DNA of 64,000 nt, from positions 8,064-72,063 of the forward strand of contig CAMBEJ010000001.1 of assembly GCA_945865375.1 (NCBI GenBank). The letters run 5' to 3'. Below are positions 12,040 through 52,049 of the stretch, piece by piece. The stretch's first letter is position 1. Each line of letters starts with the position of its first letter. The notes beneath the pieces are model-generated. The model searched no databases. It worked only from the letters and a program-made list of their open reading frames with translations, and was not told the origin of the DNA. The position numbers and the translations under genes are program-made. Origin of the DNA: Akkermansia muciniphila (GTDB lineage Bacteria > Verrucomicrobiota > Verrucomicrobiia > Limisphaerales > F1-80-MAGS106).

Positions 12040-12250
12040 TCTGAACTCAGTAAAACGACCCTGTTCAGCCTGATGCTAAAGCCACCCCAGTTCCCCGCTC
12101 CTAATCGTAATCGTAATCGTAATCGTAATCCACCCCTCTGTTTCAAGGGCAACACCCGAGGATTACGATTACGATTACGATTACGATTAGGAAAAATGGA
12201 GCCGTTGAGGGGTTGCGCGTCCAGTTAATGGAAACACAGGGCCCCTAGGC
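12040..12250. repeat. ORF-less hexamer-stem palindromic element, copy A
   Basis: Perfect 32-bp stem cc(taatcg)4taatcc at 12100-12131 against gg(attacg)4attagg at 12160-12191, with a 28-nt loop. The left outer arm ends in ctcagtaaaac (12046-12056). Alignable by eye with the reverse complement of 18190-18381 and with 51954-52049. The right boundary is approximate. Confidence 0.8.
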
Positions 12251-18189: not shown

Positions 18190-18381
18190 TCAGACCTCAG
18201 TAAAACCCCTTGAAATCGTGATCTGGAAGCGCAACCCCAATTCCTCCATTTTTCCTAATCGTAATCGTAATCGTAATCCTCGAGTGTTGCCCTTGACACA
18301 GAGGGGTGGATTGCGATTAGGAGCGGGGAATTGGAGTTGCTCGAGCCTCAGGCTAAGCAGAGTCGTTTTACTGAGTTCTGA
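18190..18381. repeat. ORF-less hexamer-stem palindromic element, copy B (full-length termini)
   Basis: Termini tcagacctcagtaaaac (18190-18207) and gttttactgagttctga (18365-18381) are inverted. The hexamer arms are unequal: cctaatcgtaatcgtaatcgtaatcc at 18254-18279 against ggattgcgattagg at 18308-18321. The loop is nearly identical to that of copy A in the opposite orientation. Confidence 0.8.
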
Positions 18382-36168: not shown

Positions 36169-38790
36169 ATGGATCTGAACAGATTCACCGAAAACTCGCA
36201 GGCCACATTGGTCGAGGCGCAAAGTCTTGCCACGCGCAATCAGCATCAGGCCATGGACGTCGAGCACGTGCTCTTGGCTCTTCTCGAGCAGGAGGGCGGC
36301 CTTGTGCCCCGACTGTTCGAAAAAGCTAAGGCCTCCTCCGCCTTGTTAAAAGCCAGGATCGAGGAGGAACTGGGCCGACTCCCGCGCGTCTCCGGCAGCG
36401 ACACCACCAAACAGGGGAACTATGTCACGCAACGGATGAACCTGCTCCTGGTTCACGCGCAGGACGAGGCCGCCACGCTCAAGGACGATTATGTGTCCGT
36501 CGAACATATGGTGCTGGCTATGTTCTCGGAACCGGCCAGCACGGCCATCGGCAAGATCTTCAAGAGCCTCGGCATCCGCCGCGATGAGTTCCTGAAGGCG
36601 CTCACCGAAGTGCGCGGAAATCAGCGCGTCACCAGCACCAATCCCGAGTCCACTTATGAGGCCCTCGAAAAGTACGGGTGCGACCTCACCAAAATGGCGC
36701 TGCAAAACAAGCTCGACCCGGTGATCGGTCGCGACAGCGAGATCCGCCGTGCTATCCAGGTGCTCTCACGCCGCACCAAGAACAACCCCGTGCTGATCGG
36801 CGAGCCAGGCGTGGGAAAAACCGCCATCGTCGAAGGCCTCGCCCGGCGCATCGTCGCGGGCGATGTGCCGGATAGCCTCAAGGAGAAACGGCTCGTTTCG
36901 CTCGATCTCGGAGCGCTCATAGCCGGTGCGAAATTTCGCGGCGAATTCGAGGAGCGACTCAAAGCGGTGCTCCAGGAGATCACCAAGGCGCGGGGGCAAA
37001 TCGTTCTGTTCATCGACGAAATCCACACGATGGTCGGCGCTGGCAAGGCTGAGGGCGCGATGGACGCCGGCAATATGCTCAAACCCATGCTCGCACGTGG
37101 CGAGCTGCACTGCATCGGTGCCACAACTCTGGACGAGTACCGGAAACATATCGAAAAAGACGCCGCGCTGGAGCGCCGTTTCCAACCCGTGCTGGTCAAC
37201 GAACCGAGCGTCGAGGACACGATCTCCATTCTTCGCGGCCTTCGCGAACGTTACGAGCTGCACCACAACGTGCGCATCCAGGACGCCGCCCTCGTCGCCG
37301 CCGCCCAGCTCTCGCAGCGCTACATCTCTGACCGCTTCCTGCCGGACAAAGCCATCGATCTCATGGACGAAGCCGCTGCCAAGCTCCGCACTGAGATGGA
37401 GTCCATGCCCGAGGAACTGGAGAACTTCGAACGAAGACTGATGCAGCTCGAAATCGAACGCGAGGCGTTGAAGAAGGAAAAAGATCAGCCATCACGCGAA
37501 CGCCTGAAGGTTCTCGAAAAAGAGCTGGCCAATCTCAGAAGCCAGCGGGATACGCTCAAAGCGCAGTGGGACAGCGAAAAATCCGCCCTTGGCAACATCC
37601 AGAAACTCCGCGAAGCCCTCGAAGTCGCCCGCAATGAGATGGAAAAAGCGCAGCGCGCGGGCGATCTCTCACGCGTGGCTGAGTTCCAATACGGCAAGAT
37701 TCCTCAATTCGAGAGACAACTCAAGGATCTGGAAACCAAAACCAACCTCGCGGAAGGAGGGGCCCGGCTCCTTCAAGAAGAAGTCACCGCCGAGGAAATC
37801 GCCGAAGTCGTGGCCCGATGGACCGGCATCCCCGTCTCACGCCTCATCGAGGGTGAGAAAGAAAAGCTGCTGCGTCTCGACCAGATTCTTCACAAGCGAG
37901 TCGTCGGCCAGGATGAAGCGGTGCAGGCCGCTGCGGATGCCATCATCCGGGCGCGCTCCGGCCTCAAAGACCCAAAGCGGCCCATCGGCTCCTTCATTTT
38001 CCTCGGACCCACCGGTGTGGGCAAGACCGAGCTCGCCCGCGCGCTGGCCGAATCCATGTTCGACAGCGAGGACAACATCGTCCGCATTGACATGAGCGAA
38101 TTCATGGAGAAACACTCCGTGTCACGACTCATCGGTGCCCCTCCGGGCTACGTCGGCTACGAGGAGGGCGGCCAGCTCACCGAGGCAGTTCGACGCAAGC
38201 CCTATTGCGTGATCCTTTTCGATGAGATCGAAAAAGCCCACCACGACGTCTTCAACATCATGCTGCAGCTCCTTGATGATGGCCGGCTCACCGATAGCCA
38301 GGGCCGCACTGTGGACTTCAAAAATACGATCCTGATCATGACTTCGAACATTGGCAGCCCGCATCTCATCGAAAATGCGAATGAGAAAGGCGAGATTGTC
38401 GAGCCAGTCAGAAAAGCGGTCATGGCCGAGCTGCGCACGCACTTCCGGCCAGAATTCCTCAACCGCGTGGATGAGATCGTCCTCTTCAAACCGCTCACGC
38501 TTGCAGAAATCAAGGTCATCGTGGAGCTGCAGCTCACATTGTTGCGGGCCCGCCTCGCCGATCGTCGAATCGAACTGGATCTCTCGGACGCAGCAAAGGA
38601 ATTTGTCGCCCGTGAAGGATACGATCCAGTCTACGGCGCGCGTCCGCTGAAGCGGTTCCTCCAACGCCAGATCGAGACCGCGCTTTCCAGAAAGATTCTC
38701 CAAGGTGAAGTGACTGACAGCAGCCATGTAAAAGTGGACCTGAGAGCTGGCCAGCTCACTTTCACCTCCAAACCGATCAAAAAGAGCTGA
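36169..38790 (+). CDS. clpB: ATP-dependent chaperone ClpB
   Basis: Collinear with ClpB throughout: two AAA+ modules ([15 protein letters not shown]; [15 protein letters not shown]), a middle coiled-coil, and [21 protein letters not shown]. Start at MDLNRFTE, 5 nt after the upstream stop. Confidence 0.97.
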
Positions 38791-38990
38791 ACCTCTTGTT
38801 GAGCCTATGCGAAATCGAAAGGCTCAGAACTCCTGACAGCGCGTCTTGGATTCAGGGCCGCAAGACATTTTTCAGTCGCGTCAACGGCGGGCTAACATTC
38901 ATGAAAAACGAAGGCCGCCGGGGATCCGGTGATCACGTCGACCAGCCCTCCATATTCACCAATAGCACCCAGCTCACCCGAAACCACCGT

Positions 38991-39494
38991 GCGCCTCTCA
39001 GATTTTTCCAGATCTTCTCGTCATCGTCATCGTCATCGTAATCCTACTCGTAATCCCATGAACCGCCGATTCGACCACGAAAAGCTGGAGGTTTGCCAAG
39101 TCTCTTTGGCTTTCATCACATGGCTTGAGCCGATCCTGCAGAAATTGCCCAAGTCCCTCTCTGTGACCGACCCATTGGATCGGGCCAGTACCTCCATCCC
39201 TCTGACCATTGCCGAAGGCAACGGAAAATTCACTGGAGCGGATCGTTGCCGATAGTTTGACAATGCCCGTAGCTCCGCTTTGGAAAGTGCCGAAGCCCTG
39301 GATGTGCTCGTGGCCAAAGGCCGATGTTCTGGGGAGGAAGTTCTGTCAGGAAAAGACCGCCTCTGGAGCGTCGTTTCGATGCTAGTCGCCTTGATAAAGG
39401 CAAACTCCGATTACCGGTTGCACGACGGAAACCCGGGATAGGATTACGATTACGATTACGATTACGAGAAGATCTGGAAAAATCTGAGATGCGC
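38991..39494. mobile_element. IVS-like hairpin element: 54-bp hexamer-repeat inverted arms enclosing a four-helix-bundle ORF
   Basis: Arms 38991-39044 and 39441-39494 are reverse complements at 50 of 54 positions. (TCATCG/TAATCG)n on the left faces (CGATTA)n on the right. Related to the ORF-less copies at 12.1, 18.3 and 52.0 kb. Mobility is inferred, not shown. Confidence 0.6.
39058..39441 (+). pseudogene. Four-helix-bundle protein (TIGR02436 / 23S rRNA-IVS protein family) with an in-frame TAG
   Basis: MNRRFDHEKLEVCQVSLAFITWLEPIL...DRASTSIPLTIAEGNGKFTGADRCR * FDNARSSALESAEALDVLVAKGRCS... The family pattern continues in the same frame across TAG at 39253-39255. Confidence 0.8.
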
Positions 39495-39562
39495 GCGCCA
39501 GCTCCTCTCCTGAGCTCTGATATTTGGGTTGAATTGCCCCGGTTGACCACTACTTTTGTGGG

Positions 39563-42475
39563 ATGATTTTGACCGAGCGCGAATCCTTTTCCAGACGGCA
39601 TATTGGTCCCAGACCCGTCGAAATCCAGGGCATGGCCCAGACGTGCGGATTCCCTTCCCTTGACGCACTCATCGACGCCGCAATGCCGCCGGGAATCCGT
39701 TCGAAGAATCCGCTCCAAATCCCGAACGCAATCTCCGAGTTTGAAGCGCTGAAAGCCCTCCGCTTGATGGCTGCCAAGAACCAGGTTTTCCGCTCTTTCA
39801 TCGGCATGGGTTACAACAACACGATCACACCGCCGGTCATCCAGCGGAATATGTTAGAAAATCCGGGCTGGTACACACAGTACACCCCTTATCAAGCCGA
39901 GATCTCACAAGGCCGCCTCGAGGGCCTGTTAAATTTCCAAACCCTGATCAGAGATTTGACATCCCTGGACATCGCCAACGCGTCGTTGCTGGACGAGGCC
40001 ACCGCGTGCGCCGAAGCCATGCACCTCTGCGCCAGTCTGAAGGAGGCCGCGGACCGTAGCGTGTTCCTCGTGGATCATCGCTGTCATCCTCAGAACATAG
40101 ACGTCCTCAGAACACGGGCCACGCCCCTGGGCATCAGCCTCATCATCGGCGACCCCGCCACTCTCGAAATCACCCGCAACACCTTCGGGATCCTCGTGCA
40201 GTACCCCGGAACGGACGGCGTTGTCCGTGATTTCGCCGCACTCGCGGAACGCGCTCACCAGGGCGGAGCGCTCCTCGTTGTCGCAGCCGATCTACTTTCG
40301 CTCACTTTGTTGAAGCCTCCGGGAGAATTCGGAGCCGACATCGCAGTGGGCAGCGCCCAGCGATTCGGCGTCCCGCTCGGGTATGGCGGACCCCACGCCG
40401 CGTTCTTCGCCACACGCGACGCCTTTAAACGCTCCATGCCAGGGAGACTCGTGGGCGTTTCCAGGGATGCTCGAGGTAAACCCGCCCTGCGCCTGTCTCT
40501 TCAAACTCGCGAACAACATATCCGGCGAGAAAAGGCCACCAGCAACATTTGCACCGCGCAAGCCCTCCTGGCCAACATGGCCATGGCTTACGCCGCCTAT
40601 CATGGACCCGTCGGACTGACCACCATCGCCACACGCATCAATCGCCTCACCCACGTTCTCGCTTCCGTCCTTAGAGGCCTCGGGTACGATCTTGGCGAGG
40701 CTCCGTTTTTTGATACCCTTTCCATTTGTCTCTCGAAGTTGGGGGCTCCAGAACTCGCCCGAATCGCTTCCAGCCACCGGATCAACTTGTGTGTCGTGAA
40801 CGATTCTACCGTGCGCGTTTCGTTGGATGAAACGACCACCCTCGAAGATGTCCGTGAGCTCGCTCAGATTTTCAATGCCGACCGAATCCCACCACGAGCG
40901 ATTTGGGAGAATGCGGTCCGATCCGCTCAGGACGAGGCCGCTTGCGCCTTTCCAGCCACGTTCCGCCGCTCGTCTCCGTTTCTGACCCAGCCGGTATTCA
41001 ACCAACATCATAGTGAGACCGAGATGTTGCGGTATCTGCGCAAGCTCGAATCCAAAGATCTCTCGCTCTGCCACAGCATGATCCCGCTGGGATCGTGCAC
41101 CATGAAACTCAATGCCAGTTGTGAAATGTTCCCTGTCTCCTGGCCCGAGTTCGCCAGTCTCCATCCGTTCGCGCCTCTCGAGCAGACGCGGGGCTACCAG
41201 GAAATGTTCTCGAACCTCGAGGACTGGCTCAAAGAGTGCACCGGTTTTTTCGCGATTTCGTTGCAGCCGAACGCCGGATCTCAAGGGGAATACGCCGGTC
41301 TGCTGGCCATTCGGCGCTACCACGAATCCAGAGGAAACGCCGGTCGCAGCATCTGCATCATCCCCACCAGCGCCCACGGCACAAACCCCGCCAGCGCCGT
41401 CATGTGCGGTTTTCAGGTGGTCCCGGTCGAATGCGACACGGACGGAAACATCGATATTGCGGACCTGCGATCCAAGGCGGCTCTGCACGGTGAGAGGCTC
41501 GCCGCGCTGATGATCACTTACCCAAGTACTCACGGAGTGTTTGAAACTTCGATCCGCCAGATTTGTGATCTTATCCACGCCGCCGGAGGCCAAGTTTATA
41601 TGGATGGGGCGAACATGAATGCCCAAGTCGGGCTCACCAGTCCCGGTGAAATTGGGGCGGACGTCTGCCACCTCAATCTCCACAAAACATTCTGCATCCC
41701 CCACGGAGGCGGTGGCCCGGGAATGGGTCCGATTGGGGTCGCATCCCACCTGGCTCCGTTCCTGCCAGGGCATCCTGTGGTCGTATTGCGCGGCTCGGAA
41801 AGCACCGGAGCCGTCAGCGCCGCTCCCTGGGGCAGTGCCTCAATTCTCGCAATTTCTTGGGTTTACATCGCTTGCATGGGGCCCCAGGGCCTCACAGATG
41901 CCACGAAAGTCGCGATTCTCAACGCTAACTACATCGCCAGAAAGTTGGAGAACCACTTCCCTGTTCTCTACAAAGGGCCCGCTGGCTTAGTCGCGCACGA
42001 ATGCATCCTGGATCTACGCCGTCTGATTGTTCTCAAAGACGGCCAGCATAGTCTTCATGCCGTCAAGCACGCAACCGCTGAGGACGTCGCCAAACGGCTC
42101 ATGGACTATGGAATCCACGCCCCCACCCTGAGCTGGCCTGTCGCCGGGACCCTCATGGTCGAACCCACCGAAAGCGAGCCCAAGTGCGAACTGGACCGGT
42201 TTTGTGAGGCTATGATTTCAATCCACGCCGAAATCATGGCAATCGAGGCAGGCCGCGCCGATGTCAAAAATAATGTGCTCAAAAATGCACCGCACACCGC
42301 CGATCAAATCTCTTCGGATTCCTGGAACCGCCCTTACAGCCGCGATGCCGCTGCGTTCCCCGTGGAGTCACTGCGTGAATTCAAATTTTGGCCCGCCGTG
42401 GGCCGCATCGACAACGTCTACGGCGACCGCAACCTGATTTGCAACTGTGTCGGCATGGATTCTCAAGCACCCTAG
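39563..42475 (+). CDS. gcvP: Glycine dehydrogenase (aminomethyl-transferring), single-chain P protein
   Basis: 970 aa and collinear with GcvP: [48 protein letters not shown], and the PLP-lysine region [16 protein letters not shown]. Confidence 0.97.
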
Positions 42476-51953: not shown

Positions 51954-52049
51954 GGTAACACCCGTGGATTACGATTAGGATTACGATTAGGAAAAATGGA
52001 GGAATTGGGGTTGCGCGTCCAGATCACGATTTCAAGGGATTTTACTGAG
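51954..52049. repeat. Solo arm of the hexamer-stem element, copy D
   Basis: ggtaacacccgtggattacgattaggattacgattaggaaaaatggaggaattggggttgcgcgtccagatcacgatttcaagggattttactgag matches one arm of copy B almost base for base. No complementary arm is present. Confidence 0.75.

Follow-up and report, generated by a model that had tools for sequence, protein, structure and literature searches.

We describe a 508-bp element at positions 38989-39496 of a 64,000-nucleotide stretch of contig CAMBEJ010000001.1 (assembly GCA_945865375.1; hereafter the window), in which an open reading frame (ORF) of the PF05635 four-helix-bundle family is enclosed by a long inverted repeat in the spacer between clpB and gcvP. 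Non-autonomous derivatives of insertion sequences (ISs) form a category that includes miniature inverted-repeat transposable elements (MITEs) and mobile insertion cassettes. With a probability of about 0.7, the window element is a non-autonomous transposable cassette that can be classed as a large MITE or a "mobile insertion cassette" and has two layers, one nested in the other. The outer layer consists of 20-bp ISKra4-like ends, on which the transposase of a full-length IS would act in trans, since the cassette itself encodes neither a DDE transposase nor a DruA/DUF4338 protein. The inner layer consists of the four-helix-bundle gene, with start and stop codons that abut inverted tandem hexamer arrays. 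The locus itself is ordinary mobile-element debris; of more interest is the family-wide architecture that it exposed.

An earlier reading of the window, made from the sequence alone (the sequence-only reading), had placed the whole gene in the loop of a hairpin with 54-bp arms, the stop codon overlapping the right arm, at a site between clpB and gcvP, and all of this was borne out. The arms at 38991-39044 and 39441-39494 are reverse complements at 50/54 positions, and a repeat finder extends them to 38988-39046 and 39439-39497 (59 nt, 92% complementary, 54/59 matching, 392 nt apart); no other inverted repeat in the 64-kb window is as long. The frame starts with an ATG at 39058-39060 and closes with a TAG at 39439-39441 that is also the opening triplet of the right arm; the entire PF05635 gene is in this way the loop of a 59-nt stem with 92% complementarity. 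Family models identify the neighbours as ClpB (TIGR03346, 1381 bits) and GcvP (PF02347). A 23-nt core of the arm is found at two sites only in the window, both of them the arms themselves, where none would be expected by chance. Three of the four arm mismatches are spaced 6 nt apart, the left arm having TCGTCA where the right arm implies TCGTAA. As RNA, 526 nt across the unit fold to -214.3 kcal/mol compared with -161.5 +/- 6.3 after dinucleotide shuffling (z = -8.4), and the closing stem is formed by the arms, so the fold check that had been proposed returned a stem far more stable than shuffled sequence. Rfam matched only one tRNA in the whole window, with no described RNA family over the stem and no rRNA.

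The arms turned out to be composite, with IS ends outside and family-typical hexamer arrays inside, and the earlier view of them as a single hexamer-stem family was thus not upheld. All parts are given on the forward strand. The left terminal inverted repeat, GTGCGCCTCTCAGATTTTTC (38989-39008), is of the ISKra4-like type and has one mismatch to the ends of 2.75-2.82 kb transposase elements and MITEs in metagenomes. It is followed by the left inner arm (39009-39044), which reads CAGATCTTC, three TCGTCA units and TCGTAATCC; in the window copy it is complementary to the right inner arm almost throughout. The next stretch, TACTCGTAATCCC (39045-39057), is recognized from a left-end alignment of the copies as the tail of a canonical left array common to the sister copies; it abuts the ATG in the window copy and leaves no room for a Shine-Dalgarno sequence. 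By its frame and family models, the segment at 39058-39441 is a PF05635/TIGR02436 four-helix-bundle (Avd/S23p-type) pseudogene of 127 codons. The right inner arm (39439-39476) reads TAG, four GATTAC units and GA, then GAAGATCTG, so that the array starts inside the stop codon, and the right terminal inverted repeat, GAAAAATCTGAGATGCGCGC (39477-39496), has metagenome matches to the same IS ends. The left inner arm differs among copies: sister copies from the same population have GTG(C/G)TCGCGTTTC, a predicted internal loop, in the place where the window copy alone has its first block and TCGTCA units. This replacement looks like a DNA-level event such as template switching between the arms.

On its outer side each arm has 20 nt (GTGCGCMTCTCAGATTTTTC) that represent a terminal inverted repeat of an insertion sequence of ISKra4-like type, and the copies have the common end GTGCGC(A/C)TCTCAGATTTTTC. 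A metagenome scan with the end pattern GAAAAATCTGAGAKGCGC returned at least 120 stretches. In metagenomes these ends (18-20 nt, inverted) enclose 2.75-2.82 kb elements with a gene for a DDE transposase of 525 aa and a second one for a DruA/DUF4338-domain protein (L128:234-3015; L109:4710-7490; L116:1990-4797; others). The best match of this transposase is by far NF033572 (ISKra4; 169.6 bits, cut-off 205), and it also matches PF06782 (28.1 bits, cut-off 24.3). The same ends enclose ORF-less MITEs of 86 and 257 bp, several further MITE types and cassettes carrying four-helix-bundle genes. Perfect 9-bp target duplications flank the elements at L116, L136, L165 and L018, and a near-perfect one is seen at L016. 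The element at L136 carries another PF05635 gene (47 bits) that is unrelated to the cassette gene and is flanked by inverted, heptamer-like ATTGAGA/ATTGAAA-type repeats, which shows that an ISKra4-like IS captured such cassettes at least twice. Within the 508 bp of the window cassette, the PF05635 pseudogene is the only long frame with a family-model match, and no transposase is present. The earlier suggestion of a MITE-like selfish module therefore stood, given IS ends common to transposase-bearing elements, duplications in relatives and multiple copies. A search of the fetched loci for an empty MITE with matching subterminal sequences had no result. Two further observations concern these insertion sequences. 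At L002 the DruA domain is fused to a DDE_5 transposase, and the DruA (Druantia) domain is suggested to be an IS accessory module. At L116:1975-4880 a full-length IS, flanked by a perfect 9-bp duplication (CTCCTAATC), interrupts the left arm of a hexamer hairpin that has no ORF.

The cassette is probably multi-copy in its source genome, judging from contig flanks and from a sister copy (L001) in a second context. The exact GcvP of the window is encoded on 15 public contigs and the gcvP-side half of the unit is identical in all of them, while at least five different left flanks join that half; clpB takes this place in the window, a tRNA gene does so in L006/L008, and L007, L009 and L010 have other sequences. 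One MAG with the identical GcvP is GCA_947443885.1. Four of the GcvP-identical contigs end inside the unit. The varied flanks and broken contigs are what a multi-copy repeat produces in short-read assemblies, and they are indirect evidence of several copies. The cassette in this way accounts for a recurrent break point in the metagenome assemblies of this lineage. Some GcvP-identical contigs also show internal deletions of the unit, e.g. GGAGGTTTA|TTGGAAAGTGCC (L006 and L008, 5700-5790; also L009 and L010), which reflect either genuine copies with deletions or jumps of the assembler from one paralogous copy to another.

Several points weigh against the interpretation as a transposable cassette with a hairpin-packaged gene. 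The cassette ORF is dead in the window copy. The flanks of this copy, GAAACCACC and GCCAGCTCC, match at 5/9 positions and form no 9-bp duplication, in contrast to the four loci with perfect ones. The left junction in the window may be a recombinant or an assembly join; the left flank in L006/L008, GGCAGTTCC, matches the gcvP-side flank at 7/9 positions by eye, a hint that the true left neighbour of the window unit may be a different one. A scan of the window found no further copy of the IS end and no transposase, and most paired IS ends in metagenome contigs are without target duplications, for which assembly chimeras are a likely cause. The assignment of the IS is kept at "ISKra4-like" because the NF033572 score is below its cut-off (170 vs. 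205). A promoter scan of 38600-39700 found none, and a hairpin right behind the clpB stop codon (GAGCCTATGCGAAATCGAAAGGCTC, 38800-38830), which a consensus scan did not call a terminator, may end clpB transcription ahead of the cassette. Finally, a wobble test on 61 stems counted 43 sense-strand G.U pairs vs. 42 A.C mismatches. This is no excess and does not favour RNA over DNA as the level concerned; arm complementarity may therefore be upheld by processes acting on DNA, such as a template switch from one arm to the other.

The cargo gene is not intact because of an in-frame TAG at codon 66 (39253-39255), and what had been read as a gene is consequently a pseudogene. Its membership of TIGR02436/PF05635 was confirmed, both models being passed with codon 66 masked (PF05635: 50.9 bits, cut-off 33.8; TIGR02436: 41.8 bits, cut-off 24). 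The sister copy L001, which is 94% identical and sits in another context, reads TAT at this codon. The window protein also has the changes Y13C, N50T, G72S and A78E at invariant or near-invariant columns in an alignment of 31 family members. About 8,000 relatives came up in a word-indexed search, and the top 120 are 73-94% identical and mostly 125-131 aa long. The ratio of nonsynonymous to synonymous substitution rates (dN/dS) is 0.06-0.14 between lineages and 0.6-1.4 among copies from the window's population; this contrast indicates a protein generally under purifying selection and a window copy that is decaying. To judge from these sequence comparisons, the window ORF is a recently dead, decaying pseudogene of a large constrained family. 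In addition, many cluster representatives in this family (P0121-P0134 and others) are 245-280 aa long with two matched stretches, as tandem double four-helix-bundle proteins; these are either fusions or read-through calls over two adjacent cassettes.

An AlphaFold2 model of an intact homologue (P0004, 87% identical) has a pLDDT of 90 and shows four long helices in a bundle. In Foldseek searches its best matches were XCC0516 (2GSC) and BT_0352 (2RLD), with TM scores of 0.70-0.89, and it also matched Avd, free or in the ribonucleoprotein of a diversity-generating retroelement (DGR; 4DWL, 8UB7), with TM scores of 0.69-0.86 and an identity to Avd of about 12%. The fold in common with Avd that had been proposed earlier is accordingly supported at the level of a predicted structure. 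PF05635 has been described both as the Avd family and as an uncharacterised protein of intervening sequences (IVSs) (PMC10053308; bioRxiv 10.1101/2024.02.27.582315). Searches with PADLOC and PHROGs gave no match for either of the two four-helix-bundle proteins searched and thus no support for a role in defence or in phages.

Hexamer arrays are, on the evidence of a family-wide scan, the usual packaging of this gene family. The scan used an alignment of members as query and one genome per species, and yielded 80 loci (56-90% identical) hosted by Verrucomicrobiota, Planctomycetota, Kiritimatiellia, Lentisphaerae, Desulfobacterales, SAR324, Binatia and Limnocylindrales metagenome-assembled genomes (MAGs). 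The design is nearly constant: upstream arrays consist of (T..TC.)n units (CTTAATC, CGTAATC, CTTGCTC, CTTACTC, others) and often end 1-20 nt before the start codon, and downstream arrays consist of complementary (.GA..A)n units that often open within the stop codon (TAG GAT TAG..., TAA GAT TAA...). An array lies within 120 nt upstream of the start at 72/82 loci and within 120 nt downstream of the stop at 66/82; 59/82 loci have arrays on both sides and 3/82 on neither. Outside these flanks the loci have a background of 0.13 arrays per kb, and shuffled sequence has 0. Two of the three array-less loci (L074, L093) have complementary arms made of another hexamer.

The arms of a locus are also matched to each other. 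Tandem repeats make a column-wise alignment of arms ambiguous, and covariation was therefore measured by comparing own-arm pairing with cross-locus pairing. Own arms pair better (mean best segment 19.4 vs. 11.8, Wilcoxon p = 1e-10), a favourable outcome for the covariation check that had been put forward. Orthologous insertions occur in operons, namely between livG-like and livF-like genes, after a gene for an 810-aa protein ending ...IDNISVTAN, and between genes for an RND adaptor and pump; at these sites the arm units have drifted (TAATC, TATTC, TGATC, CACTT) and complementarity has been kept. The spacer between RND adaptor and pump hosts four-helix-bundle genes in both Bacteroidota (L227) and Verrucomicrobiota (L031, L034). 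A separate observation was made at L014:792-875, where an ORF-less hexamer hairpin (29-nt arms, 93% complementary) stands behind a four-helix-bundle gene and opens in its stop codon; the upstream arm therefore has two alternative downstream partners.

A corresponding arrangement with a period of seven surrounds the canonical subfamily. A tblastn search with the L136 protein against plasmids found genes annotated as four-helix-bundle proteins in Nostoc, Anabaena, Aulosira, Dolichospermum, Planktothrix, Euhalothece, Treponema, Bernardetia and Chondrinema, and inverted tandem heptamer arrays stand around 11/13 of the plasmid PF05635 genes fetched. Examples are (AATTCAA)4 / (TTTTGAA)4 with arms of 31-35 nt and (TAATTCG)4 / (ACGAATT)4 with arms of 33 nt, both 100% complementary, and further arm pairs are GTCGGAG / CTCCGAC and ACCAGTG / CACTGGT. 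A model-free periodicity test assigned period 6 to 48 of the 82 hexamer-subfamily loci, period 7 to none and no clear period to 34; for the 13 canonical loci the corresponding counts were 0, 11 and 2, and for 117 random 240-nt windows they were 1, 1 and 115. The repeat period therefore follows the protein subfamily and not the host phylum. PF05635 genes lie between inverted 6- or 7-mer arrays that abut start and stop in every sample, i.e., PVC (Planctomycetes-Verrucomicrobia-Chlamydiae) bacteria, Desulfobacterales, SAR324, cyanobacteria, Bacteroidota and a spirochaete. In two cyanobacterial plasmids (L217, Anabaena cylindrica pANACY.01; L223, Nostoc sp. TCL26-01) a four-helix-bundle gene with heptamer arms is inserted between cas2 and cas1 on the opposite strand. 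In Monoglobus (L228) a frameshifted, unannotated copy of a four-helix-bundle gene sits between hsdS and hsdR.

If the transposable cassette is read in this way, a mechanism for its inner layer can be proposed. In the transcript both arrays would pair and loop out the whole cistron, much as an IVS stem does in rRNA, and a looped-out cistron could reside in host operons with little disturbance. The arm duplex would suit RNase III and possibly the encoded pentamer. With an upstream array that extends to the ATG and no Shine-Dalgarno sequence, pairing of the arrays would also block translation once the downstream arm has been made. Recognition of the periodic arms by the encoded pentamer may be a further or a substitute function, as suggested by the match between period and subfamily and by the hold of Avd on RNA in the DGR structure.

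The comparison with IVSs invites a different explanation, namely that the unit is purely an IVS-like RNA-processing module in which RNase III cuts the stem and excises the cistron, and which spreads by vertical descent or recombination with no transposition. In Coxiella, the IVS has a 28-bp terminal stem, is excised by RNase III and has an S23p ORF with a poor ribosome-binding site in its loop; GACAGAT heptamers (three to four) stand directly before the ATG and their copy number differs between strains (PMC4990558). The ORF-bearing 23S IVSs of Coxiella burnetii and Leptospira thus resemble the cassette in that a PF05635-family ORF is looped by a long terminal stem, with tandem repeats before the ATG, a poor or absent Shine-Dalgarno sequence and an ORF that is often decaying; the IVS element is regarded as selfish (PMC4990558). 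The window stem is also long and very stable, and many relatives are sense-oriented inside operons, such as the livG-like/livF-like and RND adaptor/pump sites. However, the cassette differs in lying outside rRNA in the clpB/gcvP spacer, in having hexamers on both arms and in having IS-type terminal repeats outside the stem. These outer 20 nt are the ends of transposase-bearing elements with 9-bp duplications, assemblies break within the unit, and neither an rRNA context nor a sense-strand G.U excess was found. RNase III excision is a feature of the IVS, to which the cassette is likened by layout alone, and the IVS-like reading is thus an architectural analogy that fits the inner layer only. 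Of the earlier description as an IVS-like or RNA-processing module, the Coxiella-like architecture stood, the strand-specific wobble test gave no signal for the RNA side, and as a full explanation of the unit we regard it as possible, though doubtful. It is rather unlikely that the tandem repeats are instead RNA or DNA binding sites for the encoded pentamer, serving autoregulation or packaging, with the hairpin a secondary feature. Such sites would fit a period of 6 held over at least five phyla in one subfamily and of 7 in the other, even within the same IS ends, and also the mismatches every 6 nt in the window stem. Avd is known to bind an RNA stem-loop, the avd ORF is paired at its 3' end with RNA that follows the template repeat (TR), and in the DGR structure all five Avd protomers grip the stem-loop through flipped-out bases (bioRxiv 10.1101/2023.10.23.563531). 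Sequence-specific recognition is disfavoured, however, because the unit sequences vary widely among close homologues, and ORF-less arrays are common.

The reverse relationship between the layers would hold if array, ORF and array together were a mobile cassette in their own right that settles in the loops of hairpins, giving IVSs in rRNA helices and, in the middle of palindromic MITEs, units such as ours; the IS ends of the window unit would then belong to a MITE that was the target. Two unrelated PF05635 cassettes do lie 9-27 nt from the same IS ends, PF05635 ORFs occupy several rRNA insertion sites, most of them where a stem-loop has its top or its base (bioRxiv 10.1101/2024.02.27.582315), and larger palindromes also enclose the ORF-less hexamer hairpins of the window. 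The lack of an empty MITE among the fetched loci speaks against this idea, as does the fact that an enzyme for such movement is not encoded and that many cassettes are stably syntenic between MAGs, and we consider it improbable. An assembly artefact or chance palindrome is very unlikely. Metagenome contigs of this population are indeed chimeric at the unit and the left inner arm of the window copy is unlike that of every sister copy, but this arm is not a fold-back copy of the right arm because it has TCGTCA units that the right arm is missing, and the same architecture recurs in at least 80 independent genomes and in finished plasmids, with shuffles yielding no arrays. Least credible of all is a remnant of a DGR with the ORF as its Avd. 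Fold and family are common to both, but clpB and gcvP adjoin the unit on its two sides without a gene-sized ORF in between, a direct repeat of more than 18 nt is absent from 38800-39700, and no reverse transcriptase domain adjoins the window unit or the homologues looked up. A DGR identity was rejected on the absence of a reverse transcriptase neighbour and of a repeat resembling template and variable repeats (TR/VR) at the locus.

Returning to the transposable cassette, its relation to described systems is one of partial likeness. Like a MITE or mobile insertion cassette, the window unit has the ends of an autonomous IS, no transposase, a small size, many copies and relatives with 9-bp duplications; unlike a usual MITE, its passenger is a hairpin-packaged Avd-like gene, two unrelated genes of this family occur in the same ends and the window copy has no duplication. 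The 2.8-kb partner resembles the ISKra4 family in its DDE transposase, which matches NF033572 best and passes PF06782, and in its accessory DruA/DUF4338 gene, but it scores below the curated cut-off and is known from metagenome contigs and not from the window. The cassette protein has the fold of DGR Avd and differs in its neighbourhood. A further parallel is offered by cyanobacterial STRR sequences, the short tandemly repeated repetitive heptamers. As with the cassette arrays, these are intergenic short tandem repeats, often in inverted arrays, and in the plasmids sampled they flank PF05635 genes, whereas the cassette period is 6 and not 7.

In a search of the open-access literature no paper was found that links STRR to PF05635 genes, nor an account of inverted tandem arrays as general flanks of PF05635 genes (the Coxiella heptamers aside) or of capture by an ISKra4-like IS, although an older description is possible. 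This agrees with the sequence-only reading, which knew of no description of the hexamer-stem family. The evidence links three old questions, i.e., the function of stand-alone Avd/S23p-type proteins, the origin of ORF-bearing IVSs and the meaning of STRR-type repeats, and the family-wide array-ORF-array design merits a systematic survey and experiments. A unifying answer, which we offer tentatively and think unlikely, would be that the PF05635 gene and its inverted repeat arms are one ancient, self-contained nucleoprotein module in which the pentamer binds its own periodic stem, much as Avd binds that of the DGR, and the period co-evolves with the subfamily. Such a selfish hairpin cistron would occupy operon spacers, rRNA helices and palindromic MITEs; ORF-bearing IVSs, many STRR arrays and the window element would belong to one class, as yet undescribed, with ORF-less hairpins as its relics.

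The hexamers GATTAC/GATTAG also form arrays at three window loci that have no ORF (12099-12192, 18253-18330 and 51967-51992) and had been taken for relatives of the cassette. The hexamer arrays are indeed present, but they belong to a separate palindromic repeat of about 180 nt that has hexamers alone in common with the cassette, being without IS ends and having loops unlike the ORF. The copy at 12046-12230 (right edge approximate) starts with CTCAGTAAAAC and contains a perfect 33-nt hairpin (12099-12131/12160-12192) with a 28-nt loop and a fold z of -9.2. A second full copy, complete at 180 nt, lies in the opposite orientation at 18196-18375 and has the outer inverted repeat CTCAGTAAAAC...GTTTTACTGAG (fold z -4.8), and a half copy with hexamers and GGAAAAATGGAGG...TTTTACTGAG lies at 51960-52049. 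Similar ORF-less hexamer hairpins are present in other genomes, one of them being the IS target at L116. The repeat holds GGAAAAATGGAG...TTGCGCG, which has a faint likeness to the IS end GAAAAATCTGAGATGCGC. Elsewhere, one homologue (L002:7827-10384) has phage genes for capsid, prohead protease and portal at a distance of about 2.4 kb and fragments of IS66 and Y1 transposases next to it, so that the range of sites for these cassettes includes prophage or mobile regions or their vicinity.

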